NCBI GenBank assembly: GCA_963842915.1
Contig: CAWJII010000004.1
Location: forward strand, 264,158 to 328,157
Length of the DNA: 64,000 nt
Reading direction: 5' to 3'
From: an uncultured delta proteobacterium
GTDB taxonomy: Bacteria; Myxococcota_A; Polyangia; Polyangiales; Houyiibacteriaceae
A program made the translations under genes and the position numbers. The notes beneath the pieces were generated by a model. It did not search any database and had not been told where the DNA came from. It was given only the letters and a program-made list of their open reading frames with translations. Below are positions 6,465 through 26,462 of this stretch, in pieces (position 1 is the stretch's first letter; each line of letters opens with the position of its first letter).

Positions 6465-7795
6465 TCGTGCGCAGGCAGCGAACAAGCGTCGGAACAGCAG
6501 AGCTGATCGTTCGCAAGCGAAGCGGCGGGAAGCTCGAGAAGCTCGAGATTCAAGAGTTGATCTCCGGCTTCATGGATGGCTCAGTTGCCGACTACCAAAT
6601 GAGCGCGCTGGCGATGGCCGTCTACTTCCAGGGCATGGATTTCGACGAAACGGTCGCCATGACCCTCGCCATGCGGGACAGCGGCAGGGTTCTGAGCCTC
6701 GACGAGCTCGATGCCCCGAAGGTCGACAAGCATTCTACTGGAGGAGTCGGAGACAAGGTCAGCATCTGCCTCGCTCCCATCGTGGCAGCCTGCGGTGTGG
6801 CCGTACCGATGATGAGTGGGCGCGGGCTTGGTCACACCGGAGGCACACTCGACAAGCTCGAAGCGATCCCGGGGTTCCGCGTCGATCTCAGCGTGCGACA
6901 GTTCCGAACACAACTCCGCAAGATCGGCTGCGCGCTCATCGGGCAGACAGGTGACCTCGCACCGGCCGACAAACGACTCTACGCGCTTCGGGACGTTACC
7001 GGGACGGTCGAGTCGATCCCGCTGATCACCTCGAGCATTCTGTCCAAGAAGCTTGCCGAAGGGATCGACGCGCTGGTCTTGGACGTCAAGGTGGGCAGAG
7101 GCGCGTTCATGAAGACCGAGTCGGATGCCAGAGAGCTCGCTCAGTCACTGGTGCGGGTCGGAACGCTTGCTGGCAAACGGGTCTCCGCGCTGCTGACCGA
7201 CATGAACAGCCCCATTGGATACACGATCGGGAACGGGCTCGAAACCGCCGAGGCACTCGAAATTCTCCATGGCGAAGGGCCGGACGACTTGCGGGAGCTC
7301 AGTTACGAGCTGGCCGTCGAAATGCTGAGGGCAGCGGGCGTCGCGAAGACCAAGAGCCAGGCGCGACGACGCGTCGAGCTGCGGGTGAAGGACGGGAGCG
7401 CGCTCGAGAAGATGCGGCAAGTCGTCGAGGCCCAGGGGGGTGATCCTCGTGTGGTGGACTCGCCGGATCAACTGGCCTTGGCGCGCCACCGGTCGACGAT
7501 TCGCGCCACGAAGGATGGCTACGTCACCGGCATCGATCCCCTGGAGCTCGGGTATGCCTCGATGGGACTGGGCGCAGGCCGCAGCCGCGCGGAGGATGCC
7601 GTGGATTGGGGAGCGGGAATTCGCCTGCACGTCCAGCTCGGCGATCGGGTCCGCTCGGGCGACGCGCTCGCCACCTTATATGCGTCGCGGCCCGCGCTGC
7701 TGGGTCCGGGCAAAGACCGTGCAGCTCTCGCTATTCGACTCGCAAAGCGACGCCCTCCGGCCCGCGGACGCGTCATCGCAACGATTCGCCGTTGA
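6461..7795 (+). CDS. deoA: Thymidine / pyrimidine-nucleoside phosphorylase
   Basis: KHSTGGVGDK phosphate-binding motif, SGRGLGHTGGTLDKLE, LYALRDVT. GTG start overlaps the rnr stop (GTGA); exact start is uncertain. Confidence 0.9.
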   Translation: MIVRRQRTSVGTAELIVRKRSGGKLEKLEIQELISGFMDGSVADYQMSALAMAVYFQGMDFDETVAMTLAMRDSGRVLSLDELDAPKVDKHSTGGVGDKVSICLAPIVAACGVAVPMMSGRGLGHTGGTLDKLEAIPGFRVDLSVRQFRTQLRKIGCALIGQTGDLAPADKRLYALRDVTGTVESIPLITSSILSKKLAEGIDALVLDVKVGRGAFMKTESDARELAQSLVRVGTLAGKRVSALLTDMNSPIGYTIGNGLETAEALEILHGEGPDDLRELSYELAVEMLRAAGVAKTKSQARRRVELRVKDGSALEKMRQVVEAQGGDPRVVDSPDQLALARHRSTIRATKDGYVTGIDPLELGYASMGLGAGRSRAEDAVDWGAGIRLHVQLGDRVRSGDALATLYASRPALLGPGKDRAALAIRLAKRRPPARGRVIATIRR

Positions 7796-9158
7796 TCAAG
7801 CAGCCGTCATCCGCGGGCAAGGTGATTTGCGCGCGGAGCTCACGGTACCCCGGCGAATCTACGTAGCTCGTGTCGGGGAAATTGGAGCCCGCGGCATAGC
7901 GTACGCCAAGCTCTCGAATGAAGTCGGTGCCGCTTGCCTCGTCCAGAGCAGCAAGGACGCGCGACGCGCGTACTGGATGCGTCTCTTTGTCCCAGTCGGA
8001 CTGTGCGTCGCTGATCGCCAGCAGAAGCGTGCTCTTCCCACCAGTGGCGCGCCGAATCCTGACGTCGGTTTCCAGCGCAAACGCCACCCCTGCCCAGTAC
8101 ACGCGCTGATAGGCTTGGGTCCGATTCATGCTGCGGCTCTCGTCGGCCAATGAGCGACCGGTACCCGAATGCCGGCCGCGTTCGAAACCTTCGCGGATAC
8201 GCTTCCAAGCCCGCACGCCGCTCTGCAGGCCGCATCGCGCCCGCAGAACCTCTTGTAAGTACGTCGCTATTCCTTCGGATAGCCAGCGGTCTTGCACCCG
8301 CACGCGGGGAAGCCACAGATGCGAGAGCTCGTGAACTGCGACCCAATCCGATTCGAGCTCAGCCGCGTTGCTGTCCAACGAGGGAAGGAGAAGAATCGAC
8401 GAGCCGCCACCTCTGCGCAGCATCCCGAACGCGACCTGCTCACCCGGTGCATCTACCGGAACGATCACGAACTGCACATGATCGCGAGGGAATCGACCGC
8501 CGACGGACGCGCTGGTCTGGACGGCGCGAGAGAGCCAACGGCGAACGTCGATGTCGACTGGCCATGCGCCGAGACGCGCGACATCAACTTCGGTGTTGGC
8601 CAACGAAAACGCTTGCTGGTCAAACACCCCTAACACTCCGAAGGTCTCGACGAAGAAGGCGCTTCGCTCCGGCAGGTAGGCGCCGTTGGATCGTGACCAG
8701 GGCAACGAGACCTGCCCTTCACCGGGAAGTCGGAAGCGAATCGATGCGCTGAGCTCGCGGGGAAACGGATCGGGGCGCCAGAGCCACTGGGTCTGGGACA
8801 CTATCCTGGCGGATGAATCCCCCAGTCGCGTTGGGCTGCGTTCGAACTGGGCTTCGTACTCGACGCAGGCGGGCGCCGATACCCGACTCGACAGGATTCG
8901 ACCCTCCTTCGTTTCCAAGGGGACGCCGTCGACCCAGGCGCCCCGCAGCCGTGATCCGGCGCTCCCATCCATCGGAACCAAATCCGCCGGGGCCATGCCT
9001 TTGAAGCATGCATGAACTCTCGCAGCGCCAAGGTTGTCAAAGATTGTAACCCGGTAGTGAGCAATCGCACTCGATTGCGGCTCATCTGGAGGGACATCTA
9101 CCCTGTGCGCGCAAGCAACGAGGCAGAGCAGCCCGGCGATTCTTCCAAAGCCCATCAT
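7773..9158 (-). CDS. Gluzincin metallopeptidase lipoprotein (M1/M61-like)
   Basis: Lipobox LVAC; HELSH zinc motif followed by WLSEG (third-ligand Glu context as in the WLNEG of the M1 family). Confidence 0.7.
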   Translation of the reverse strand: MMGFGRIAGLLCLVACAHRVDVPPDEPQSSAIAHYRVTIFDNLGAARVHACFKGMAPADLVPMDGSAGSRLRGAWVDGVPLETKEGRILSSRVSAPACVEYEAQFERSPTRLGDSSARIVSQTQWLWRPDPFPRELSASIRFRLPGEGQVSLPWSRSNGAYLPERSAFFVETFGVLGVFDQQAFSLANTEVDVARLGAWPVDIDVRRWLSRAVQTSASVGGRFPRDHVQFVIVPVDAPGEQVAFGMLRRGGGSSILLLPSLDSNAAELESDWVAVHELSHLWLPRVRVQDRWLSEGIATYLQEVLRARCGLQSGVRAWKRIREGFERGRHSGTGRSLADESRSMNRTQAYQRVYWAGVAFALETDVRIRRATGGKSTLLLAISDAQSDWDKETHPVRASRVLAALDEASGTDFIRELGVRYAAGSNFPDTSYVDSPGYRELRAQITLPADDGCLINGESLR

Positions 9159-9424
9159 GATCTAAGCCGCTAGAATCCATGGGGTATTTGCTCCGGATCG
9201 CCAGTGCAATCGAGGCACGAATCAGACGAAACATCGGGGCGCGACCGACGTAGAGGATATCATGACCCATGCTTCGCTCTCGGATTGCGACCAGGTAGCG
9301 CTTTCGCTAGCGTGGCTGAGCGGGAAGCGGGGAAATGGGATTGGTCCCAGAAGCCGCGTTGCATCGCCGGAGAGCCGTTTGAATGCTCCCGATGCTCTGA
9401 CAAATAAATAGAGGGTAAACAAAC

Positions 9425-9703
9425 ATGAACTCAGCACTCAAGCACACGATCATCGCGATGGCGACCGCGGCACTCAGCGTGACTGCAGGATGCAAGTCGG
9501 ACGATGGTCCGGAAGCTGCCGAAGCTACCACGGGCGCCGAGACTGCTGCGGCCGTCGAAGAAGGTGCTGCGGAAGCTTCCTGTGGCGAAGGTAGCTGCGG
9601 CGAAGGCAGCTGTGGCGGAGCCAAGGACGCTGCGAAAGACGCCACGGGCGATGCTGCGGAAGCCTCCTGTGGCGAAGGCAGCTGCGGCGGCGCTAAGAAG
9701 TAA
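9425..9703 (+). CDS. Candidate RiPP precursor: small lipobox peptide with repeated [EG][AG]SCG motifs (HvfA/bufferin-type metallophore-like)
   Basis: 92 aa; signal/lipobox LSVTAGC; EASCGEGSCGEGSCGG and EASCGEGSCGG blocks (5 motif Cys); GAGGG about 9 nt upstream of the ATG; lies directly upstream of the DUF692 gene. Confidence 0.7.
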   Translation: MNSALKHTIIAMATAALSVTAGCKSDDGPEAAEATTGAETAAAVEEGAAEASCGEGSCGEGSCGGAKDAAKDATGDAAEASCGEGSCGGAKK

Positions 9704-9748
9704 GCGAGCCGGATCGCGCTTCCCTGCAAGGGGCAGCACGATATTTGG

Positions 9749-9784
9749 AGCCGCGGCGGCATTTGTCGCCGCGGCTTGTTTTTT
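9749..9784 (+). terminator. Intrinsic terminator/attenuator-like hairpin between precursor and maturase genes
   Basis: AGCCGCGGCG-gcatttgt-CGCCGCGGCT perfect 10-bp GC-rich stem followed by TGTTTTTT. Confidence 0.6.
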
Positions 9785-9796
9785 ATCGGGACAAGG

Positions 9797-10663
9797 ATGA
9801 GTCGGAACCTCGGCGGAGAGAACAAGAGAGCAGTCACGGGAATCGGCCTCGGCTTGCGCTACGACCTCGCAACCGAGCTGCTCGATCGTCAGCCGACGAC
9901 GGTTTCATGGCTGGAGATCCACCCGGAGAACTACGTGAATCGAGGCGGCCGCTACCAGGAGATCCTCGACCTGGCGCGACGAGATTGGCCCATCGTCACC
10001 CACGGGCTCAGCACTTGCCTGGGCGCCCCCGAGCCATTCGACGCGAGTTACCTGCGCGAGCTCCGGGGGTTCCTCTCTGACCTCGAGATCCCTTGGCACA
10101 GTGAGCATCTCTGTCTCGGCGGAGTCGATGATCGTTTCTTCCACGACCTGCTTCCCCTTCCCTTCACCGAGGAGGCGGCGCAAATCGCATCCCAGCGGCT
10201 GATCGAAGTCAGAGACGCGATTGAACTGCCCTTGGCTTTGGAGAATGCGAGTTACTACGCGCCACAGTGCGAGGATGGCTTGGCGGAGGCCGACTTCGTG
10301 GTCGATGTCTTGGAGCGCGCTGACGCAAAGCTGCTTCTCGACGTCAACAACATCTACGTGAACAGTCGCAACTTCGATTTCGATCCCAAAGCGTATATCG
10401 ACAAGATTCCGGCGGACCGAGTGGTGCAGATCCACGTCGCAGGTCATTTCGTTCGCGAGGACGGGCTGCGCATCGACACCCACGGCGAACCCGTTCGGGA
10501 CGAGGTCTATCAACTGCTCGACTACACGCTCAGAAAGGTCGGTCCCGTTCCCGTCTTGCTCGAGCGGGACAACAACGTGCCGCCCCTCGACGAGCTTCTC
10601 GCTGAAGTCGACGAGCTTTGGGCAATCTATCGCCGCGCCACGGAGGGCGAAGATGCTGGCTGA
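9797..10663 (+). CDS. DUF692 / MNIO (multinuclear non-heme iron oxidative) family enzyme
   Basis: GIGLGLRYDL, WLEIHPENY, THGLS, WHSEHLC, DLLPLPFTEE, ALENASYY, LLLDVNNIYVN, IHVAGH: the typical DUF692 TIM-barrel signature. ATG 9797 is preferred over TTG 9776, which lies inside the hairpin. Confidence 0.88.
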   Translation: MSRNLGGENKRAVTGIGLGLRYDLATELLDRQPTTVSWLEIHPENYVNRGGRYQEILDLARRDWPIVTHGLSTCLGAPEPFDASYLRELRGFLSDLEIPWHSEHLCLGGVDDRFFHDLLPLPFTEEAAQIASQRLIEVRDAIELPLALENASYYAPQCEDGLAEADFVVDVLERADAKLLLDVNNIYVNSRNFDFDPKAYIDKIPADRVVQIHVAGHFVREDGLRIDTHGEPVRDEVYQLLDYTLRKVGPVPVLLERDNNVPPLDELLAEVDELWAIYRRATEGEDAG

Positions 10664-11384
10664 CCAGGCCAAAGCCATGCAACGGGTTTGCTTCGGCGCC
10701 GAACCATCAGAGGCAGACCTCGAGCTATTGGGATCGCGGGAACGCTGGCTAGTCTATCGAGAGCTCGTCCAGAACAGGCTCGTTCAAGTGATCGAAGTCG
10801 CCCTAGCGCGCACCCGAACAGCGATTGGAGATGAGGCCTTTGGGCGTACTGTCTCCGACTGGCTCGGCACGGGCGGCCCCAGGACCCGATACCTGCGCTA
10901 CGTGCCGAGCGAGCTAGCGGATTTCGCGATTCCCATCTGGCGCGGCACCGAAGCGCCCTGGGTTGCCGAGCTAGCGTGCTTCGAGATCGGCAGCTGGAGC
11001 GTCCGGCACGCACCCCAGGACCCCAAGCCCGAAGCTGAGTTCGCCTTCGACCGACGGCCGGTGCTCAGCGAGGCAGTCGACCTCGTCCGCTTCGAATACC
11101 CAGTCCAGAAGAGACCTAGGCCAGCTGCCGGCTATGAACCCGAACCGACCTTGCTCTGCATCTATCGCGGCGCCGACCATCGGGCGCACACGCGGGCGCT
11201 AAACCCTCTGGCTGCCGACCTGCTCGATGCTTGGAAACGCGCTGACGAAACCGTTGCAGACTCCGTTCAACGCATAGCCAAAGCCCACGGCACCGAGATA
11301 GGCCCGGCTTTCGTGGAGAAACTCTCCGCCCTCATCGCCGACTTCGTTGAACGCGGCGTCATCCTCGGCGGAAGCGACGCCTAG
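10653..11384 (+). CDS. DUF2063-type partner protein of MNIO enzymes (HvfC/BufC/MbnC-like role)
   Basis: Overlaps the DUF692 gene by 11 nt. N-terminal WLVYRELVQNRL...ALARTRTAIGDEAF pattern is typical of DUF2063. Confidence 0.72.
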   Translation: MLADQAKAMQRVCFGAEPSEADLELLGSRERWLVYRELVQNRLVQVIEVALARTRTAIGDEAFGRTVSDWLGTGGPRTRYLRYVPSELADFAIPIWRGTEAPWVAELACFEIGSWSVRHAPQDPKPEAEFAFDRRPVLSEAVDLVRFEYPVQKRPRPAAGYEPEPTLLCIYRGADHRAHTRALNPLAADLLDAWKRADETVADSVQRIAKAHGTEIGPAFVEKLSALIADFVERGVILGGSDA

Positions 11385-12529
11385 TAGCCTTCGACCTTGC
11401 TGATGATTTCGTTCATGATTTCGCGGGTGCCGCCACCGATGGGGTAGAGGCGCGCATCGCGGTAGAGTCGTTCGACGACGTACTCACGCATGTAGCCATA
11501 GCCGCCATGGATTTGGACCGCCTGGTCACAGACGCTCGAGCACATGTCGGTCGCCGTGTTCTTTGCCATCGCGGCCAGAGAAGGCGTTTGTTCTCCGTTG
11601 AGAAAGCGCGTGACGCACTCGCCGGTGAGGGCGCGGGCGGCGGCGATCTGGGTCGCCATGTCGGCGAGCTTGTGGCGAACGACCTGGAAGCCAGAGAGCG
11701 ACTTGCCGAACGCATACCGCTGCTTGGCATAGTCGACCGACTCTCGGTAGGCGAGCTCGGCAATGGCGACGCACTGGCCCGCGAGCATCAGGCGCTCGGT
11801 GACGAAGTTGGTCATGATCATCAGGAAGCCGGCACCTTCTTGACCAATGAGGTTCTCTAGGGGCACACGGCAGTCCTCGAATGCGAGCTCGGCCGTGTCG
11901 CTGGCCCACCAACCGGTCTTCTTGAGCTTGCCCGCTACACTGAAACCGGGGCTGTCGCTGTCGATGATGAGCATCGAGATGCCACCGTGGCCCTCGCCTC
12001 CCGTGCGAACGGCGGTGGTTACGAAATCCGCTCGCGTTCCCGACGTGATGAATGTCTTTGCGCCGTTGACGATGTAGTGGTCACCGTCGCGGACCGCCTT
12101 GGTCGCAATGGCTGCCACGTCGCTGCCCCCACCAGGCTCCGTGATCCCCAGGGCTGAAACCTTGTCGCCTCGGAGCGTCGGTCGCACGTAGCGCTCTTTG
12201 TGCGCATCGGTGCCAAACTTGACGATTGGTGGCAGCGCGATCCCATGGCTCCCAAGGCCCACGCAGGTCCCGACCGACTTCCCGGCGAGCACCATTTCCT
12301 CGGCGGCCACCAGTACGTGACTGAGATCTCCCCCGTCACCGCCCAGCTCCTCGGAATATCCGGTCCCGAGAAAGCCGGCCTCGGCCGACTGCTGATACAG
12401 CTCACGGGGGAACTCGTTTGCTTCTTCCCAAGCAAGCGCATGCGGCGCAATCGCATTGGCTGCGAAGCGCCGCACCTGCTCACGCAGCGCGCGATGCTCG
12501 TCTCTTTCGAACAGATAGCTCCTCACCAA
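11381..12529 (-). CDS. Acyl-CoA dehydrogenase
   Basis: ALGITEPGGGSDVA, YIVNGAKTFITSG, QIHGGYGYMREYVVERLYRDARLYPIGGGTREIM. Start is TTG 12529 or GTG 12526. Confidence 0.9.
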   Translation of the reverse strand: MVRSYLFERDEHRALREQVRRFAANAIAPHALAWEEANEFPRELYQQSAEAGFLGTGYSEELGGDGGDLSHVLVAAEEMVLAGKSVGTCVGLGSHGIALPPIVKFGTDAHKERYVRPTLRGDKVSALGITEPGGGSDVAAIATKAVRDGDHYIVNGAKTFITSGTRADFVTTAVRTGGEGHGGISMLIIDSDSPGFSVAGKLKKTGWWASDTAELAFEDCRVPLENLIGQEGAGFLMIMTNFVTERLMLAGQCVAIAELAYRESVDYAKQRYAFGKSLSGFQVVRHKLADMATQIAAARALTGECVTRFLNGEQTPSLAAMAKNTATDMCSSVCDQAVQIHGGYGYMREYVVERLYRDARLYPIGGGTREIMNEIISKVEGY

Positions 12530-12541
12530 AGTGGCGAGATA

Positions 12542-16732
<4,191 letters not shown>

Positions 16733-16735
16733 GAC

Positions 16736-19700
16736 TTACTCTTCCTCCGCGGCAAGGGCGTCATCCGACCTGCGCCCCATTTGACTGGTCTCGACCAACT
16801 CGACGTTCAGGCAGAGTGCCTGAAGCTCCTTCATGAGGACGTTGAAACTCTCCGGCAGTCCGGCTTCGAGCTGGTAGTCCCCCTTCACAATCGATTCGTA
16901 CATGCGGGTGCGGCCCTGCACATCGTCGGACTTGACGGTCAGGAACTCTTGCAACGCGTACGCCGCGCCGTAGGCTTCCATCGCCCAGACCTCCATCTCG
17001 CCGAGCCTCTGCCCGCCGAACTGCGCCTTACCACCCAGCGGCTGCTGCGTGACGAGCGAGTACGGGCCGATGCTTCGTGCGTGGATCTTGTCATCGACCA
17101 AGTGGTGCAGCTTGAGCATGTACATGATGCCCACGGTGACGTCCTCGTGGAATGCGTCGCCGGTGCGTCCGTCGAAGAGCACCGTCTGACCATTGTCCTG
17201 CACGCCAGCGAGCCTGAGGAGGTCCTTGATCTCTTCCTCGCTCGCGCCGTCGAAGACTGGGGTTGCAAGCTGAAGGCCGTGCTTCCAACTCTTGGCCATA
17301 TCGGCGACTTCGCCGTCAGGTAAGGCGTCCAGCACCTTTACGATGTTGCCGCCCTTGAAAATTGCCCGAATCCGCTCACGCAGCTCCGCAGCGCTGGCCT
17401 TGGTTTCGACCATCTCCTGCAGTTGCGTGCCGAGCAGGTAGCCTGCCCAGCCGAGGTGCGTTTCGAGGATCTGGCCGACGTTCATGCGGCTCGGAACACC
17501 TAGTGGGTTCAGAACGATGTCGACCGGCTTACCATTGGGGAGGTATGGCATGTCTTCTTCCGGAAGAATCCGGCTGACGACACCCTTGTTACCGTGACGA
17601 CCGGCCATCTTGTCGCCGACCTGGAGCTTACGCTTGATGGCGACGTAGACCTTCACCATCTTGATGACGCCCGGAGGAAGCTCATCGCCCTTGCCGAGCT
17701 TGTTGATCTTCTCCTGGAAGAGCATCTTGACGGCGTCGACCTGATCGTCGACCTGCTCGAGAATCGCGTCGGTCTTGTCTTTGTTCTTGTCGACCTCGAT
17801 GTGCGCCCAGTACTTGTGCGGGATCCCGTCGAGATCCTCATTCGTAATCTTTGCGCCCTTGGCGAGCAGCTCTGTGCCCTTGTCTCCGACCAGCTTCGCT
17901 GTCGCGGTGCTCCCAACGAAGTACTTGCGAACGCGGTCATGCGCGGAGTCGACGACGATCTTGATCTCGTCCGCCATGTCCTTTTCGAGCTTGGCCCGCT
18001 CGGTCTCCTCGATTTGAAGCGAGCGCTCGTCCTTCTCGGTGCCTTTGCGTGCAAACACGCGGGCGTCGATCACGATGCCCGTCACACCGGGCGGAACCTT
18101 GAGCGAGGTGTCGCGAACGTCGCCGGCCTTCTCACCAAAGATGGCGCGAAGAAGCTTCTCCTCGGGAGAGAGCTGGGTCTCGCCCTTCGGAGTGATCTTG
18201 CCGACGAGAATGTCGCTCGAGCTGACCTCGGCGCCGATGCGAACGATGCCGGACTCGTCCAGGTCCTTGAGAGCCTCTTCGCCCACGTTCGGTATGTCGC
18301 GGGTGATCTCTTCTTTGCCGAGCTTGGTGTCCCGAGCGACGCACTCGAACTCCTCGATGTGAACCGAGGTGTAGACGTCGTCCTTGGCAATCCGCTCGGA
18401 GAGCAGAATCGAGTCCTCGAAGTTGTACCCACCCCAGGGCATGAACGCGACGATCACGTTCTGACCTAGCGCGAGCTCACCGCGATCGGTGCTGGGACCG
18501 TCGGCAATGACGTCGCCGGCCTTGACACGGTCGCCGGGACGCACGATCGGCGTCTGGTTGTACGCGGTGTTCTGGTTGGATCGCTGAAACTTGTTGAGTC
18601 GGTAGATGTCCGGAAATGCGCCCGCAAGCCCCTCGGCCTTTACGACGATTCGCGTCGCATCGACGGACTCGACCACGCCGTCCTGCTGCGCAACGACGCA
18701 CACCCCGGAGTCGCGTGCGACCCGAGCCTCGATGCCTGTGCCGGCGATCGGAGCGTGAGTGCGGACGCATGGAACGGCCTGACGCTGCATGTTCGAACCC
18801 ATCAAGGCGCGGTTCGCGTCGTCATGCTCGAGGAACGGAATCAAAGAAGCAGCGACGGAGACCAGCTGATTCGGTGACACATCCATCAGCTGAACGGTCT
18901 TTGGCGGAACCATCACGAATTCGCCGTTGAAGCGGGCGCTAATCAGTGTTCCCTCGAGCTTGCGGCTCAGGTGCTCGATCTTCGCGTTCGCCTGAGCGAT
19001 GTAGTGGCCCTCCTCTTCGAGAGCTGAGTACCAACGCACGTGGTCGTCGAGCACGATGCCATCCTCGACCTTTCGGTACGGAGTCTCGACGAAACCGTAT
19101 TCGTTGACGCGAGCGTAAGTCGAAAGTGACGCGATCAGACCGATGTTCGGACCTTCCGGCGTCTCAATCGGGCAGATGCGGCCGTAGTGAGTCGTGTGAA
19201 CGTCGCGGACCTCGAAGCCAGCGCGCTCACGCGTCAAACCACCGGGCCCAAGCGCGGACAGGCGCCGCTTGTGCGTCACCTCGCTGAGCGGGTTGGTCTG
19301 GTCCATGAACTGCGAGAGCTGGCTCGAACCGAAGTATTCCTTCACGACCGCGCTCACGGGCTTTGCGTTGATCAGGTCGTGCGGCATGAGAGTCTCAATT
19401 TCTTGAGACATGTTCATGCGTTCCTTGATGGCGCGCTCCATTCGCACGAGGCCGATGCGGTACTGATTCTCCATCAGCTCGCCCACTGCGCGAACGCGAC
19501 GATTGCCCAAGTGGTCGATGTCGTCGACCGAGCCGCGGCCATTCTTGAGCTCGATGAGATTCTTCACCGTGTCGAGAATATCGGTGTTGGTCAGGACCGT
19601 ATGACCCAGGTCAGGTCGCTCTTCCTCTTCGACATCTTTGTAGAACTTGTAGTTCAATTTCAGGCGACCGACCTGGCTCAGGTCATAGCGCTCTGGATTG

Positions 19701-20890
19701 AAGAACAGGTTGGTGAAGAGGTTCCGCGCAGTGTCGAGCGTGGGCGGGTCGCCGGGGCGCAAGCGACGGTAGATTTCGAGGATGCCCTCGTCCTGTGATT
19801 GCACCTTGTCGACGAGCAGCGTGTCGCGGAGGTACGAACCGACGTTGAGCCCGTCTATGAATAGCACCTTGAACTCGTTGACTCCGGCCTCGTTGAGCGC
19901 GTCGATGCGAGCCTGGGTTACCTCTTCGTTGACCGCGAGAAGAATCTCGCCGGTGTCCTCGTCGATGACGTCCTCGGCGGCAACCTTTCCAATCACCTCG
20001 GTGAAGTCGATCGGCAAGTAGTCGAGCCCTGCAGACTTGAGCTTGCGAATCGCGGCGCGAGTGAACTTGCGGTTTTTGCGCACGAGCACGTCATCGCCAA
20101 CCGTGATGTCGTGCGTGGCGCGCTGGCCAGGAAGAAGCTCGTACTCGATGGACTTGGCGTACTGATCCTTCGAGAGGATGTAGATCGTCTCGGTGTCGTA
20201 GTAGTAGTTGAGGAGCTCCTGGGTGTTGTACCCGAGAGCCTTGAGCAGCACCGTGGCCGGCATCTTGCGGCGGCGGTCGATGCGAACGTAGAGCAAGTCC
20301 TTCGGATCGAACTCGAAATCGAGCCATGATCCCCGGTAAGGAATGATGCGGGCCTGGTAGAGCAGCTTGCCGGAGGAGTGTGTCTTGCCACGGTCGTGGT
20401 CGAAGAAGACACCCGGGCTTCGGTGAAGCTGGCTGACGACGACGCGCTCCGTCCCGTTGATGATGAACGTGCCATTGACCGTCATCAGCGGGATTTCACC
20501 AAAGTAGACTTCCTGCTCCTTGATATCGCGGACGGCTCGCTCGGTGCTGTCACCGCCGGCGTCGTAGATGATGAGCTGGATCGTCACTTTGATCGGCGCG
20601 GCGTAGGTCATCCCACGCTGCCGACACTCGTCGACGTCGTACTTCGGCCTCTCGAGTGTGTACCCCCCGAAAACCAACTCGCTCGTTCCATTGAAGTCGC
20701 GAATCGGGAACACACTGTTGAAGACCCCTTGAAGACCGGTGTTTTCCCGTTCGTCTCTGGGTACGTCTGTTTGAAGAAACTTGTCGTACGAACGCTTTTG
20801 AATGTCGATCAGGTTCGGGATCTCGAGGATGTGCTCGATCTTCCCGAAGGAGTGTCGCATTCGAAAGTTCGTCTGAATCGTCGCCGCCAT
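16736..20890 (-). CDS. rpoB: DNA-directed RNA polymerase subunit beta
   Basis: Canonical RpoB sequence throughout. Start set at the internal ATG (MAATIQTNF...), which is preceded by GGAG. Confidence 0.98.
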
Positions 20891-21083
20891 TAGAGAGACT
20901 CCTACCGAACCACTGCTACCGGAACCTAAAGCCAAGAATTAAGAGACACGTACGCGACAAGGAGACCTTTCGGCCTCCCGCCGCATCGCGGAAAGTCGTG
21001 AATGATGTGCTGCGCGAACCGGTGCTGCCCCGGCCGAGACGTTAACCCGGTCGGGCCCATGTGCCAAGTCGCGGCACAGGGCT

Positions 21084-21110
21084 CCAAAAAATAACCCCAT
21101 AGGGTTATTT
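21084..21110 (-). terminator. Hairpin plus U-run just after the rplL stop (rplL-rpoB attenuator-like)
   Basis: Minus strand: AATAACCC-TATG-GGGTTATT followed by TTTTGG. The stem includes the rplL TAA stop. Confidence 0.55.
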
Positions 21111-21485
21111 GACGGTAACCTTCGCGCCAGCTTCTTCGAGCTTCTTTTTGATTTCTTCGGCTTCTTCCTTGGAGACGCCCTCTTTGATCACTTTGGGAGC
21201 TGCCTCCACCAGTGCCTTGGCGTCCGCCAAGCCGAGCTGGGTGATCTCGCGGATCGCCTTGATCGCGTTGATCTTCTTGGCGCCAGCCTCGGTCAGCTCG
21301 ACGTCGAACTCGGTCTGCTCTTCGGCTGCCTCCGCTGGGCCGCCTGCGGGACCGGCCACGGCCACCGCTGCCGGTGCTGCCGAAACGCCCCACTTCTCTT
21401 CGAGCTCTTTGACCAGGTTCGCAACTTCCATGACGGTCCAGGAGCTGAGCTCTTCGACCATCTGTTCCGTATTCATATTTGCCAT
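21105..21485 (-). CDS. rplL: 50S ribosomal protein L7/L12
   Basis: [13 protein letters not shown]...[21 protein letters not shown]...[14 protein letters not shown]. Confidence 0.97.
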
Positions 21486-21536
21486 TGTTGACTCTCCGCT
21501 AACCGTGCGTGCGACACGGCTAAAGTTGTTGTTGAA

Positions 21537-22106
21537 TTACTCGCCCGCCTGTTTGCGCCGGTACGCATCGAGAACGAGGGCGAGGTTTTGGGCCGGTGCA
21601 TTGATTTGGCCGACCAGATTCTGCATGGGCGCCATGAGCTGCGCGAGCAGCGAAGCGCGAACCTCATCCTTGCCCGGAAGCGAGGCGAGTTCTTTTTCGA
21701 CGCGCTTTGCGTCCAAGATTTGGCCCTCGAGAACACCGCACTTGACGATGAGCTTCTCGTTGCCGTCCTTCGGCTGGAGGACGTCGGTGTGCTCCTTGCG
21801 GAAGTTCTTGATGACCTTGGCAGCGGCCGAAGGATCTTCGAAGCTCCAGGCGATCGCCGTCGGGCCAACGAGGTGGGCCGTGAACTCCTCGTTGTCGGCG
21901 AGCTCAGAACCCTCGATCGCCTTTCGGACGACGTTGTTCTTGATGACCTTGTACTCGACTCCGGCTTCGCGGAAACGGGAGCGGAGGTCCGTGATCAGCT
22001 CGACGTTCACGCCGCGGAAATCGACCAGCACGGTTGCGGTTGCGTTCGCGAAGCTCTCGCGGACGGAGACGGCCTGCGCCGCTTTGTCTTCTCGTGTAAG
22101 GCTCAT
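21537..22106 (-). CDS. rplJ: 50S ribosomal protein L10
   Basis: Position between rplA and rplL; L10-like sequence (VLVDFRGVNVELITDLRSRFREAGVEYKVIKNN). Confidence 0.95.
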   Translation of the reverse strand: MSLTREDKAAQAVSVRESFANATATVLVDFRGVNVELITDLRSRFREAGVEYKVIKNNVVRKAIEGSELADNEEFTAHLVGPTAIAWSFEDPSAAAKVIKNFRKEHTDVLQPKDGNEKLIVKCGVLEGQILDAKRVEKELASLPGKDEVRASLLAQLMAPMQNLVGQINAPAQNLALVLDAYRRKQAGE

Positions 22107-22108
22107 GA

Positions 22109-22807
22109 TTACGCCTCCACCTCTATAGTGCCGGGGTCAATCTTGATCCCGGGGCCCATCGTGGAGCTCAGAGTAATGGTGCGAAGGTAGGTGCCCTTCG
22201 CGGCGGCCGGCTTGGCCTTCACGAGCGCATCGACCAAGGACTTCACGTTGCCAGCGAGCTCGGAGTCGCCGAAGGACTTCTTGCCAATCTGTGCATGAAC
22301 GATGCCCGCCTTTTCGACGCGAAACTCGACCTTACCGGCCTTGGCCTCGCGAACGGCCTTGCTCACATCGAAGGTCACAGTGCCGACCTTGGGATTCGGC
22401 ATCAGGCCGCGAGGACCGAGGACGCGACCAAGACGGCCAACCTGCCCCATCATGTCCGGCGTGGCGATGACCGTGTCGAACTCGAGCCAGCCTTCATTGA
22501 TTTTGGCGACGAAATCGTCACCACCAACGAAATCGGCGCCCGCTTCTTCCGCCTCAGTCACCTTCTCGCCCTTGGCGAACACCAGGACGCGGTTGGTCTT
22601 GCCAGTGCCGTGCGGCAAGACGACGGCTCCACGAACCATCTGGTCCGCGTGCTTCGGATCAACCCCGAGGCGAACCGCGAGGTCGACCGACTCGTCGAAG
22701 TTGGCGAAGGCCAATTCCTTTACGAGCGAGACGGCTTCCCGCAACGCATAGCGGCGACTCTTGTCGGGCATCTGTAAGGCGCCCGCGCGCTTTTTTCCGG
22801 GTTTCAT
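22109..22807 (-). CDS. rplA: 50S ribosomal protein L1
   Basis: MKPGKKRAG... start chosen inside the ORF; [30 protein letters not shown]; [15 protein letters not shown]. Confidence 0.95.
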
Positions 22808-22895
22808 TCTGACTCCTTGCGACGACTCGAAGCCGCCTACCACCAACTGAGGTCCTGGGTGGTTCCAGGTGAGCGATATCAATCGTTCGGGAGAG

Positions 22896-23318
22896 TTAGT
22901 CGACTAACTCGACCCCCATGGAACGCGCGGTGCCGATGATGCTTTGCATGCATGTCTCGATCGAGCCCGCGTTGGTATCTTGAAGTTTGACCTGAGCGAT
23001 CTCCCTCACCTGGTCCAGGGTGATCTTGCCGACCTTGTCTTTGTTCGGTCGCGCCGAACCCGACTCGAGGTTCAAAGCCTTCTTAATCAAGACAGCCGCA
23101 GGGGGTGTCTTCATGATGAAGCTGAAGGAGCGATCCTGGTAGACCGAGATCACCACGGGGATGATCAGACCCGCGTCCTTCTGCGTCTTCGAGTTGAACT
23201 CCTTGCAGAACGCCATGATGTTGACGCCGTGCTGGCCGAGCGCGGGCCCGACCGGCGGAGAAGGGTTCGCCTTCCCTGCAGGGAGCTGAAGTTTGATCTG
23301 TCCGATGACCTTTTTCAT
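22896..23318 (-). CDS. rplK: 50S ribosomal protein L11
   Basis: [34 protein letters not shown]. Confidence 0.97.
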
Positions 23319-23541
23319 GGATTCGGGGTTCTCCGGAGCGGCGAGTCATGCCTCAGGGCACAGAAAGTGCAAGCCGATTTCTGGGAAATGTGGATCAGGC
23401 GCGATAATCGCAATTTTGGGGGGCGTCCAGGTGGGTCAGCTGGCGAGCGCCCCCGCAGCGAGCGACTGCGGCGTACCGCGGTACGCCGCAGGGAGTGAGC
23501 CAGGAGGTAAGCCGCCAGACGGCCCGGCTGGGCGTCCTCCG

Positions 23542-24066
23542 TTAGTTGGTCTTTTCGACCTGGACGTAGTCCAGCTCGACCGGGGTGGCGCGGCCGAAGA
23601 TCGATACCAGGACGCGAACCTTGTGCTTCTCGTGGTTCACTTCTTCGATTGCGCCAGTGAAGTTGGCGAACGCGCCGCCAGTGACCCGGACGTGGTCGCC
23701 CTTCTCGAACTCGACGCGGGGCTTGGGCTTGGCCGCACCTTCTTCGACCTGCTGCTCAATCGCAGCGATCTCGCGTTCGGGCACGGGCGAGGGATGGCGA
23801 CCGCCGACGAAGCCATTGACCTTCGGCGTGTCCTTGATGAGGTGCCAGGTCTGATCATCGAGGTCCATCTGGACGAAGATGTAGCCTGGGTAGAAGGTGC
23901 GCGAACTCAGACGGGGCTTCCCGCCACGGCTCTCCTGCACGTTCTCCTTCGGAATGAGGATGTTCCCGAAGCGCCCCTCCATGCCGGCCTGTTTGATGCG
24001 CTCTTCCAGCGAGAGCTTCACTTTGCTTTCGTAACCCGAATAGGCCTGAACGACATACCACTTCAT
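23542..24066 (-). CDS. nusG: Transcription termination/antitermination factor NusG
   Basis: MKWYVVQAYSGYE start; KOW region GDHVRVTGGAFANFTGAIEEV. The upstream part of the track ORF was rejected because it is Arg-rich and overlaps secE. Confidence 0.95.
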   Translation of the reverse strand: MKWYVVQAYSGYESKVKLSLEERIKQAGMEGRFGNILIPKENVQESRGGKPRLSSRTFYPGYIFVQMDLDDQTWHLIKDTPKVNGFVGGRHPSPVPEREIAAIEQQVEEGAAKPKPRVEFEKGDHVRVTGGAFANFTGAIEEVNHEKHKVRVLVSIFGRATPVELDYVQVEKTN

Positions 24067-24071
24067 GTGAC

Positions 24072-24497
24072 TCACACGTTGTAAATGAGGTCTGTGATGT
24101 GGGACCAAACCGCGTCGTACACGCCGAGAATGATTGCCGCGATCACGGACACGATGAGGACGACGATCGTCTGAGACCAAGTTTCCTTGCGCGTGGGCCA
24201 GCTCACCTTGGAGAGCTCGACACACACTTCAACCACGAAGGTGTGAACCTTCTTCGACCGATAGGCGATGACCGCTGCGATGAACGCCAGCAAGCCTGCT
24301 CCAACCGAGATGAGCGTTCCGTCCGGCTCCGGGACGGCGTCGACGTTGTCCGCGAGCATCGTCCAGACTGCGGTGCCGCTCTTGATGAGGAACCAGGCCA
24401 GCGTAATGGCGCAGGCAGCGTAGGCGAACTGCACCCAGCGCTCTACTCCGAGCGTTCCGGTCGGCCTCGCTTTGTCTTGTTCTTTTGTGATCGCCAT
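24072..24497 (-). CDS. secE: Preprotein translocase subunit SecE (3-TM form)
   Basis: Position between tRNA-Trp and nusG; C-terminal ELSKVSWPTRKETWSQTIVVL signature. Start at MAITKEQ. Confidence 0.85.
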   Translation of the reverse strand: MAITKEQDKARPTGTLGVERWVQFAYAACAITLAWFLIKSGTAVWTMLADNVDAVPEPDGTLISVGAGLLAFIAAVIAYRSKKVHTFVVEVCVELSKVSWPTRKETWSQTIVVLIVSVIAAIILGVYDAVWSHITDLIYNV

Positions 24498-24510
24498 CGT
24501 TGTTCCTCGC

Positions 24511-24586
24511 GGCAGGCCAGGAGGGATTCGAACCCACAACCCGCGGATTTGGAATCCGCTGCTCTACCAATTGGAGCTACTGGCCT
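24511..24586 (-). tRNA. tRNA-Trp (anticodon CCA)
   Basis: Cloverleaf read by eye: acceptor AGGCCAG/CTGGCCT, anticodon arm GCGGA-TTCCAAA-TCCGC, T-loop TTCGAAT. Confidence 0.92.
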
Positions 24587-24844
24587 AGGAGATAGTGTGG
24601 GGGCGGTGGGGCGGGACAAACTGCCGGGCCCCCAGGCCCGTCCGGCCTCTATGTGCCCTTTGTCTTCCCTAGACCAACACCCTCTTTTTCTTATTTCGTT
24701 TCTTTGTGATCCGTTCGCCGGTTGCATTTGGGACAGAACTTTTTCAGGGTCAGTCTCTCCCGTTGGCCGGGCTTTCTCAACTTTGTCGTTTGGTAGTTGC
24801 GCGCCCCGCACTCGTCGCACGCGAGCGCAACCTTAACCCGTCTA

Positions 24845-26035
<1,191 letters not shown>

Positions 26036-26096
26036 CGTACGTTCCCTACTTCGTCGTTCTTCTGAGTGAGCTTGCTTGAACTCGCAAAATCCGCAG

Positions 26097-26168
26097 AGCC
26101 CAGGATGAGACTTGAACTCACGACCTCCCCCTTACCAAGGGGGTGCTCTACCACTGAGCTACCTGGGC
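26097..26168 (-). tRNA. tRNA-Thr (anticodon GGU)
   Basis: GCCCAGG acceptor, anticodon arm CCCCC-TTGGTAA-GGGGG, T-loop TTCAAGT. Confidence 0.9.
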
Positions 26169-26185
26169 ATAGTCTGATTTGCGGG

Positions 26186-26258
26186 AGCGGGCGACCGGGC
26201 TCGAACCGGCGACATTCAGTTTGGAAAACTGAGGCTCTACCAACTGAGCTACACCCGC
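26186..26258 (-). tRNA. tRNA-Gly (anticodon UCC)
   Basis: GCGGGTG acceptor, anticodon arm TCAGT-TTTCCAA-ACTGA, T-loop TTCGAGC. Confidence 0.9.
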
Positions 26259-26279
26259 GTAATCTGTGTGTTCATCTCC

Positions 26280-26365
26280 TGGTGGAGGGTGGTGGGTTCG
26301 AACCACCGTAGGCATAAGCCGGCAGATTTACAGTCTGCTCCCTTTGACCGCTCGGGCAACCCTCC
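26280..26365 (-). tRNA. tRNA-Tyr (anticodon GUA), long variable arm, CCA encoded
   Basis: GGAGGGT acceptor, anticodon arm GCAGA-CTGTAAA-TCTGC, variable arm, T-loop TTCGAAC, 3' ACCA. Confidence 0.9.
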
Positions 26366-26389
26366 ATGGTCATTCGTCTTTTCGCGTAG

Positions 26390-26462
26390 AGCTGGCGATG
26401 AGACTTGAACTCATAACCGCCGGTTTACAAAACCGGTGCTCTACCAATTGAGCTACGCCAGC
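26390..26462 (-). tRNA. tRNA-Thr (anticodon UGU)
   Basis: GCTGGCG acceptor, anticodon arm CCGGT-TTTGTAA-ACCGG, T-loop TTCAAGT. Confidence 0.9.

Follow-up and report, generated by a model that had tools for sequence, protein, structure and literature searches.

Three co-directional genes in a 64,000-nucleotide stretch of DNA from an uncultured Polyangiales bacterium (contig CAWJII010000004.1; the whole stretch is called the window here) probably make up a captophorin-type, or MNIO–PME1, operon for a peptide that is made by ribosomes and modified after translation (RiPP). Judged from its sequence, the operon would be of the oxazolin or HvfABC kind, in a lipoprotein form. The cassette (9425-11384, + strand) has the order A-B-C, with a precursor, an MNIO maturase and a DUF2063/RRE partner, and it is genuine and strongly conserved. 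It is a further member of the recently described oxazolin/captophorin family and not a new kind of system, and membership is claimed at the family level only, because the HvfABC equivalog cut-offs are not reached. The MNIO–PME1 class comprises more than 24,000 loci, named captophorins (PMC13097082). It has so far been studied almost wholly in Pseudomonadota, and the locus described here carries it into an uncultured group of Polyangiales.

All three open reading frames (ORFs) stand in the ORF list of the window where the first-pass annotation, made from the letters of the DNA, had placed them. That annotation had recognised a Hvf/Buf-type RiPP cluster, in which an MNIO and a DUF2063 protein accompany a lipobox precursor with cysteine motifs, and this picture is borne out by Pfam, by the NCBIfam model NF050137 and by conservation in relatives. 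The genes are as follows.

9425-9703, + strand: precursor, HvfA-family lipoprotein type, 92 amino acids (ORF call, NF050137 match, conservation)
9797-10663, + strand: MNIO (DUF692) maturase, 288 amino acids, without a signal peptide (PF05114)
10653-11384, + strand: PME1/HvfC-type partner, 243 amino acids, with an N-terminal DUF2063 and a C-terminal NGO1945-like RRE domain

The cassette and its conservation

The precursor opens with a signal peptide (residues 1-22), in which Lys6 of the n-region is followed by a hydrophobic, uncharged stretch. The lipobox reads V-T-A-G-C, with Cys23 encoded at 9491-9493, and fits a PROSITE PS51257-type rule that was applied by hand. An acidic tether rich in Ala, Glu and Thr leads from Cys23 to the first of two cores. 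The motif E-[AG]-S-C-G occurs exactly five times, at residues 50, 55, 60, 79 and 84 (motif cysteines 53, 58, 63, 82 and 87), in core 1, EASCGEGSCGEGSCG, at 9572-9616 and core 2, EASCGEGSCG, at 9659-9688. The mature peptide is rich in Ala, Gly and Glu and has a net charge of about -10. The NCBIfam model of the HvfA-family domain (NF050137, Buf_EGKCG) matches the precursor at 21.3 bits, a small margin over the cut-off of 19.5; members of that family carry paired repeats of the five-residue motif x-G-x-C-G. With Ser at position 3 of all five motifs, the precursor stands outside the Lys-Cys group.

The maturase belongs to Pfam family PF05114 (MbnB_TglH_ChrH; E = 2.9e-91), and the structure of a Histophilus somni HvfB homologue (PDB 3BWW) aligns to it with E = 1.3e-49. 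Its N-terminus, MSRNLGGENKRAV, has no hydrophobic stretch. The mechanically called ORF opens at a TTG at 9776, and this start was dropped for the ATG at 9797 because the TTG overlaps a hairpin and the public gene calls have 288 amino acids, identical to the product of the ATG, which lies downstream of the hairpin (9748-9777). NCBIfam models rank the enzyme closest to HvfB (298 bits), followed by BufB (270), ApyH (89), ChrH (63) and MbnB (26), all below their equivalog cut-offs. The closest characterised enzyme is FonB, at 46% identity, and identity to HvfB is about 37%. When the window MNIO is aligned with FonB, HvfB and NgoB (alignment A1; sequences from the supplementary information, SI, of PMC13097082), the columns of the iron-ligand positions H69, H104, E149, D182, N184, H213, D227, H229 and E256 are all invariant, and so is D258, the equivalent of the FonB catalytic base D249. 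N184, D227 and H229 correspond to N175, D242 and H244 of HvfB, and mutation of these abolishes HvfB activity.

The partner matches DUF2063 (PF09836) at 33.5 bits against a gathering cut-off of 27.2 and NGO1945_C (PF22106) at 47.1 bits against 27. Its start overlaps the end of the MNIO gene by 11 nucleotides, which suggests translational coupling of the two. A profile built from Myxococcota homologues of the partner matches NgoC (PDB 3DEE) with E = 7e-7; the profile was needed, as a PDB search with the single partner sequence did not recover 3DEE. The cassette therefore holds what marks a captophorin locus, namely an MNIO with its ligands and catalytic Asp, an adjacent PME1 partner and an adjacent Cys-rich precursor with a Sec-type signal. 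The combination of a precursor bearing a signal peptidase II (SPase II) lipobox and an MNIO lacking a signal peptide also makes it a RiPP-lipoprotein hybrid as defined in PMC13056109.

Conservation was followed by scanning one genome per species, which returned 80 loci (labelled L001 and so on). The trio occupies the same chromosomal site in about 30 Polyangiales metagenome-assembled genomes (MAGs) or species, with MNIO identities of 72-96%, and is present in rearranged form across the wider Myxococcota. In every close relative with enough flank, the small ORF lies directly upstream of the MNIO. Among the 29 precursors tabulated (that of the window and 28 from relatives), neither the lipobox Cys nor the Lys at +2 ever changes (29 of 29 for each), the linker varies in length and sequence, and a core has between 3 and 5 cysteines. 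The pattern E-[GA]-x-C-[GS] describes all 117 core motifs, where x is Ser in 109, Asn in 3, Lys in 3, Ala in 1 and Thr in 1. The three Lys motifs all come from locus L026 (3689-3928), which has a canonical EAKCGEGKCGEGKCG core behind the common signal peptide, tying the Ser form directly to the EGKCG family.

Further afield, a lipobox peptide with Cys repeats precedes the MNIO and partner in distant Polyangia (Sandaracinaceae and others; MNIO identity 50-65%). The Sandaracinaceae precursors at L033, L034, L037, L043 and L046 carry GEASCSG two to three times and then a terminal SCGAGSCG, so that the GEASCSG cores have a Cys-Ser dyad instead of Cys-Gly. At 45% identity or less, MNIO homologues come mainly from Alphaproteobacteria and are paired with DUF2282 (BufA1) precursors. 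A search with the core peptide alone gave 140 candidates, all from the same clade, and the spread of Ser-type cores outside the Polyangiales is therefore not measurable from that search.

Two further observations concern the precursors. Much longer lipobox precursors occur in Bradymonadia (L042, 1511-1933; L056, 3455-3907), in which GEAACDGEAACDG is one of the repeats and the dyads include C-P, C-E and C-D. FonBC failed in vitro to process cysteines followed by an acidic residue, and these precursors could be of a different specificity class, going by their repeats. The signal peptides of the window precursor and of those at L031-L059 have a common sequence, MN[ST]xLK...[IL]xAMAxAA or MDSKLRAxVLTMAAATLGL, even at MNIO identities of 55-60%. 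This likeness exceeds generic hydrophobicity; shared ancestry could account for it, or a further function of the signal peptide in being recognised by the partner protein.

The conservation of the small ORF bears on the simplest alternative, that it is an ordinary low-complexity lipoprotein and that the MNIO pair acts elsewhere or is inactive. Its core is compositionally simple, and MAG annotations call it hypothetical or low-complexity (the JGI label on the precursors of relatives is "uncharacterized low-complexity protein"). However, its position, lipobox and E-G/A-x-C-G motifs are kept through linker turnover in all 29 precursors, distant Polyangia have comparable lipobox ORFs with Cys repeats ahead of the MNIO, the HvfA-family model is passed and the active site of the MNIO is intact, all of which makes an ordinary lipoprotein scarcely credible. 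The first-pass annotation had named two losses that would count against it, that of the iron ligands and that of the small ORF beside MNIO homologues in relatives, and neither is seen. Its description of a 92-residue signal/lipobox peptide with five Cys motifs, a DUF692 enzyme and a DUF2063 gene overlapping by 11 nucleotides is likewise confirmed, in coordinates and in features, and the profile matches for enzyme, partner and peptide were all obtained.

In the close clade, the gene order is RNase R, thymidine phosphorylase, an M61-like gene where present (- strand), precursor, MNIO, partner, acyl-CoA dehydrogenase (- strand) and rpoC (- strand). The fixed site beside the rpoBC region in about 30 species means that the cassette behaves as a core function and not as a sporadic biosynthetic cluster. 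Four proteins of the window (the trio and the M61-like protein) are matched exactly in MAGs labelled "Polyangiales bacterium", where they are annotated as a hypothetical protein, a DUF692 protein, a "putative DNA-binding domain-containing protein" and a hypothetical protein. The G+C content of the window is about 63%.

The housekeeping surroundings, here the rpoBC region, are uncommon for a RiPP cluster. At 12542-26462, rpoC abuts the cluster and is joined by a second ORF of about 1400 amino acids, consistent with rpoB, and by a series of short ORFs. At 24.5-26.5 kb there are five genes for tRNAs (Trp, Thr, Gly, Tyr and Thr). Elsewhere in the window, at 32724-34421 on the + strand, is a 565-residue protein with an N-terminal zinc-ribbon-like CxxC...CxxC, a low-complexity middle of Ala, Pro and Ser and a conserved C-terminal domain.

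Proposed chemistry, location and role

By homology to HvfBC, FonBC, NgoBC and NedBC, the partner would bind the precursor in the cytoplasm and enable the mixed-valent di-iron cofactor of the MNIO, a state for which HvfC is required. The MNIO would then use O2 to oxidise the five motif cysteines by four electrons each (-4 Da each, -20 Da in total) to 5-thiooxazole. By analogy with the characterised members, partner recognition and four-electron oxidation are the strongest step of the proposed pathway. The lipobox and the precedent of NedA suggest what would follow: Sec export of the modified peptide, diacylglycerylation of Cys23 by Lgt, cleavage by LspA and N-acylation by Lnt. More tentatively, the invariant Lys at +2 may retain the peptide at the inner membrane, on the model of Myxococcus xanthus, where Lys is the +2 residue of 8 among 12 inner-membrane lipoproteins (PMC3222651). 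On the periplasmic side, the acidic tether of about 26 residues might then present the thiooxazoles in two clusters (3 + 2), which may be Cu(I) ligands and serve as a buffer for copper or some other thiophilic metal. The link to copper is drawn from family analogy, because no DoxX, sigma/anti-sigma or copper-homeostasis gene was found among the roughly 35 window ORFs scanned.

The expected chemistry follows that of the family. Fontiphorin, oxazolin, gonophorin and the bufferins have all been found, where tested, to carry 5-thiooxazoles and bind Cu(I), and the marks of a captophorin product are the 5-thiooxazole, a loss of 4 Da per Cys, absorbance at about 305 nm, alkylatability and Cu(I) binding (PMC13097082). 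The first-pass annotation had relied on oxazolone/thioamide chemistry for HvfA. That assignment (PMC11252979) is outdated, since two independent 2026 studies have moved HvfA to 5-thiooxazole (PMC13097082; bioRxiv 10.64898/2026.06.05.730506). Conversion of the window cysteines to oxazolone/thioamide pairs, as in methanobactin, would give isomeric products with an equal change of -4 Da, and it was the original view of HvfA. It is nonetheless very unlikely, as 5-thiooxazole occurs in all MNIO–PME1 products tested, the window MNIO is far nearer to HvfB, BufB and FonB than to MbnB (298 and 270 against 26 bits for the NCBIfam models of HvfB, BufB and MbnB), and its partner is PME1, not MbnC.

Several points weigh against assigning the cassette to the oxazolin kind. 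None of its proteins reaches an equivalog cut-off: the precursor scores 17.7 bits for HvfA (cut-off 95; NCBIfam equivalog set NF050188, NF003818, NF050145), the MNIO scores 298 for HvfB (cut-off 360) and 270 for BufB (cut-off 310), and the partner scores 95 for HvfC (cut-off 142). Ser did not occur among the position-3 variants of FonBC met in PMC13097082, and no explicit statement was found that the EGSCG cysteines of NgoA are modified. The two FonB positions proposed to govern Lys-Cys specificity are both altered in the window MNIO (Tyr for Arg16 and Asn for Phe250), so substrate handling, and conceivably the outcome, could differ. The sorting rule for Lys at +2 stems from a myxobacterial order other than the Polyangiales. 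Finally, when about 35 ORFs of the window were scanned against Pfam, the functions recognised around the cassette were all housekeeping or unrelated ones, with no DoxX, sigma/anti-sigma, copper-homeostasis or metal-sensing regulator gene among them; for DoxX and sigma/anti-sigma genes this agrees with the first-pass annotation. A cis-encoded regulator, DoxX or copper gene near the cassette is thus ruled out for these ORFs, and DoxX was also not seen among the genes called at three related loci (L081-L083).

As far as can be read from the alignment, the altered specificity positions fit a substrate without Lys at motif position 3. MNIOs of the close clade have Tyr or His at the Arg16 site and mostly Asn at the Phe250 site, with Ser or Thr there in two loci. 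In distant Polyangia the latter site is occupied by Gln, Gly or Asp, with Gln in the five Sandaracinaceae loci whose cores carry GEASCSG. However, the MNIO of L026 has Asn at this site although its motifs carry Lys, so the residue does not simply track Lys versus Ser. A natural and near-pure Ser-Cys substrate, together with an MNIO changed at both positions, is a ready-made test of the FonB recognition model.

The genes and the modification could also be as proposed and the role be other than copper buffering. The product might serve another thiophilic metal (Zn, Ni, Co, Hg, Au or Ag), act as a chalkophore or protect the membrane from redox or oxidative stress. The missing copper gene, DoxX and metal-sensing regulator would agree with this, as would a place among RNase R, thymidine phosphorylase, acyl-CoA dehydrogenase and rpoC and vertical inheritance across about 30 species, which is the behaviour of a core function. 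In addition, the literature holds the metal specificity of 5-thiooxazoles to be unsettled, and some bufferin fusions lie in mercury loci. Replacing Lys with Ser removes a positive charge beside every ligand, in a mature peptide that is already at a net charge of about -10. Yet every characterised member (oxazolin, fontiphorin, gonophorin, the bufferins and MmrA) binds Cu(I) or protects against copper, and a role apart from copper is accordingly judged unlikely.

The first-pass annotation pointed to Ser/Ala in place of Lys in the core motif, a lipoprotein-type signal, a host that looks myxobacterial and no adjacent DoxX, and took the locus for the best candidate in the window for an uncharacterised variant system. 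None of these features sets the locus apart, since each has a published precedent. NgoA, the gonophorin precursor, naturally carries AEGSCG motifs beside EGKCG (PMC13097082, SI Table S6). Lipoprotein-type oxazolins had been predicted bioinformatically, and in a 2026 experiment one of them, NedA of Neisseria dentiae, was found to be triacylated and modified at each EGKCG motif, with a loss of 4 Da per motif (PMC13056109). As for the host and DoxX, 74 MNIO–PME1 clusters have been tabulated in Myxococcota, including 19 in Polyangiales, and DoxX is present in only 67.8% of MNIO–PME1 clusters, which makes it common but not defining (PMC13097082). The label of uncharacterised variant was therefore overstated. 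Current understanding is not overturned by the locus, which is useful in practice for comparison and for the few testable hypotheses that it offers.

Putative transcriptional control elements and an M61-like neighbour

Four things were overlooked in the first-pass annotation: the specificity positions of the MNIO, a motif of the extracytoplasmic function (ECF) sigma type, the hairpin between genes A and B, and the divergent M61-like gene. The candidate control elements, read in an alignment of the upstream region from 23 loci, each from a different species (alignment A3), and in a terminator scan, are as follows.

9228-9252, + strand: ECF-sigma-type promoter-like element GAAAC-N16-CGTA, 197 nucleotides upstream of the precursor ATG
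9285-9313, + strand: second bipartite element TTGCGA-N17-TAGCGT, with TTGC and GCTAGCGT invariant in A3
9337-9348, + strand: short inverted repeat GGGATTGGTCCC, conserved in A3, in the leader or regulatory region
9748-9785, + strand: hairpin between precursor and MNIO, with a GC-rich 13-bp stem and then a T-run

The roughly 200 nucleotides upstream of the precursor (9228-9424) are conserved in blocks, nearly as strongly as coding sequence, in all 23 species. The GAAAC and CGTA blocks are invariant, and the spacer between them has a fixed length but a variable sequence. GAAAC-N16/17-CGTA has a single match in the window, counting both strands, and the motif is also found upstream of the precursors at the distant loci L032 and L038. 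ECF promoters have AAC in the -35 element and CGT in the -10 element, and on this general promoter knowledge the motif points to control by an ECF sigma factor. As no sigma/anti-sigma gene lies nearby, the regulator must act in trans; transcription would start from this element with a sigma factor encoded elsewhere. The second element may be a sigma-70-like promoter or a regulator-binding site, to judge from its conserved halves. It was not picked up by a scan for consensus sigma-70 promoters, which found none in 8900-11800. A ribosome-binding site, AGAGGGT, forms a conserved block ahead of the precursor gene.

Other explanations of the conserved upstream region were tried and rejected. For a structured RNA or riboswitch, Rfam gave only matches below threshold and no family, and the RNAalifold consensus fold, at -10.3 kcal/mol, had a covariation term of only -0.33, most of its pairs being invariant. 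With RNA evidence this weak, promoter and operator elements at the DNA level are preferred. A hidden conserved small ORF is made unlikely by indels that are not multiples of three and by the block-wise pattern of conservation.

The hairpin that follows the precursor gene resembles an intrinsic terminator or an attenuator. At the equivalent place, 36 Myxococcota loci have strong hairpins, most of them ending in a T-rich tail, and the hairpin sequences are unrelated. That the place is kept and the sequence is not suggests attenuation, which would let precursor transcripts outnumber those of the enzyme. A weaker second hairpin, GCTTCCCTGCAAGGGGCAGC, lies directly 3' of the precursor stop at 9704-9745, and most close relatives also have two.

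On the other side of the control region lies the remaining gene of interest.

7773-9158, - strand: M61/M1-like gluzincin metallopeptidase, candidate accessory gene, 461 amino acids, divergent from the precursor gene

Its product has a lipoprotein signal (LVAC, with Cys16), HELSH at 276-280, Glu295 and Tyr354. The Pfam M61 family (PF05299) matches at 17.6 bits (E = 0.005), short of the gathering cut-off of 22, and the M1 family matches with E = 0.04; database homologues have no precomputed Pfam domain. An AlphaFold2 model (pLDDT, a per-residue confidence score, of 87.6) was compared with the PDB by Foldseek, and the top matches were the M61 aminopeptidases 7xyo (Myxococcus fulvus, E = 2.7e-18), 4fgm and 8j9c, with M1 enzymes ranking next. 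At 461 residues, the protein falls short of the M61 structures, which have 524-605. The active-site alignment with ERAP2 spans HExxH and the downstream WLxEG, and the stretch aligned to the M1 motif GAMEN reads GEQVAF, so GAMEN is not conserved. No homologue, down to 27% identity, departs from the lipobox Cys, H276, E277, H280, E295 or Y354 (alignment A4). The protein as modelled has the gluzincin fold with HExxH, the downstream Glu and the catalytic Tyr.

These features suggest an alternative with four genes in the cluster. The peptidase would be a dedicated periplasmic maturation enzyme that cuts the tether, or between the two cores, and frees soluble thiooxazole peptides, and the final product would be a secreted metallophore and not a membrane-anchored buffer. 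Besides the fold and the intact HExxH...E...Y, the lipobox of the peptidase would put it in the same compartment as the exported precursor. The peptidase gene has stayed beside A-B-C through rearrangement: it is upstream of the cluster and divergent at L032, at L038 and in the close clade, whereas at 10 or more Sandaracinaceae-type loci it directly follows the partner (HvfC) gene in the same direction. The three most divergent homologues from a word search (40-45% identity) all adjoin A-B-C, about 8 of 28 distant metagenomic homologues have an MNIO gene, mostly with an HvfC gene, within 6 kb, and whether EGKCG products undergo proteolytic processing is posed as an open question in PMC13097082.

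The distribution of the gene argues the other way. About 10 of 30 close-clade species have lost it or keep it only in degraded form, and most distant homologues are not near an MNIO. In L001, the nearest relative (93% nucleotide identity), a clean internal deletion of about 1.05 kb (window 7894-8948 against L001 3100-3155) leaves N- and C-terminal stubs of the peptidase gene beside an intact A-B-C, and at L011 and L017 only remnants are left. Loss appears to be both recurrent and recent. Also, M61 and M1 enzymes are typically aminopeptidases, and the N-terminus of a mature lipoprotein is blocked, while adjacency within the clade could be mostly inherited synteny. A fourth, dedicated gene is therefore possible but doubtful, and an exclusive association of peptidase and MNIO was dismissed, given that distant homologues lie mostly elsewhere in the genome and that the gene is deleted in L001.

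Within the three-gene operon favoured here, the peptidase might trim or release the exported product without being indispensable. Its part as a plausible accessory gene, with a facultative link, is possible but doubtful. The wider proposal, that in Polyangia exported, lipid-anchored thiooxazole peptides are processed by a dedicated, hitherto unannotated M61-like lipoprotein peptidase and that the module is driven by an ECF sigma factor encoded elsewhere, is rather unlikely. If it were true, cutting the acidic tether would convert a metal buffer on the membrane into short thiooxazole metallophores that are set free, the captophorin class would gain its first maturation protease, and there would be an answer to the published question of whether products of the EGKCG type act intact or in pieces. 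A peptidase that is recurrent yet dispensable is a concrete candidate for that question.

At 10 Sandaracinaceae-type loci (within L033-L057), a secreted protein of about 216 residues (MHKTLSTLALAALLG...SRDFQIRNDGGSRIQF...) is encoded about 1.5 kb 3' of the partner or peptidase gene. One of the 10 lacks the peptidase, and the arrangement may reflect plain synteny.

Comparison with known systems

The methanobactin system MbnABC resembles the cassette in that an MNIO oxidises precursor cysteines by four electrons to a Cu(I)-binding heterocycle. The window MNIO reaches only 26 bits with MbnB, and the Mbn partner is MbnC and not PME1. The Mbn precursor has a leader instead of a signal peptide, its product is an oxazolone/thioamide and its role is copper acquisition. 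The bufferins BufABC (DUF2282/Buf2; PMC11626156, PMC12452194) have the same MNIO–PME1 enzymology, Sec-dependent precursors and 5-thiooxazole copper ligands. Regulation by ECF sigma/anti-sigma pairs is common among them, and about 16% of Buf2 precursors are predicted lipoproteins. Unlike the window precursor, with its short tandem repeats, bufferin precursors are folded DUF2282 or 6/12-Cys domains.

The closest likeness in gene order is to HvfABC(X) of nontypeable Haemophilus influenzae (PMC11252979), with its precursor, MNIO and DUF2063/RRE partner in succession and a Sec-exported precursor of about 90-95 amino acids. Both systems have paired E-G/A-x-C-G motifs with a short spacer and keep all iron ligands, and by analogy one 5-thiooxazole per motif Cys, binding Cu(I), would be expected. 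They differ in that the window MNIO is about 37% identical to HvfB and falls short of the equivalog cut-offs, motif position 3 is Ser and not Lys, and the signal is of the SPase II (lipobox) type and not SPase I. The cassette also lacks DoxX (HvfX) and the N-terminal disulfide pair of HvfA, and its host is an environmental Polyangiales bacterium and not a pathogen.

Two systems of PMC13097082 bear on the Ser motifs. NgoABC(X) of Neisseria gonorrhoeae has EGSCG-type motifs in NgoA, and the partner profile of the window matches NgoC. FonABC of Fontimonas thermophila supplies the characterised enzyme of highest identity, FonB, and FonBC accepts Ala, Arg or Thr at motif position 3 but requires a small residue (Gly or Ala) at position 5, a tolerance that fits the window core. 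In contrast to both systems, the window MNIO has Tyr and Asn at the FonB Arg16 and Phe250 sites, and the motifs of its clade are nearly all of the Ser type (109 of 117). Finally, NedABC of Neisseria dentiae (PMC13056109) combines a lipobox and E-G-x-C-G repeats in its precursor with an MNIO and a partner. As described, its motifs are EGKCG, its host is a betaproteobacterium and it has no reported associated peptidase; NedA is nevertheless the closest functional precedent for the order of the pathway proposed here.

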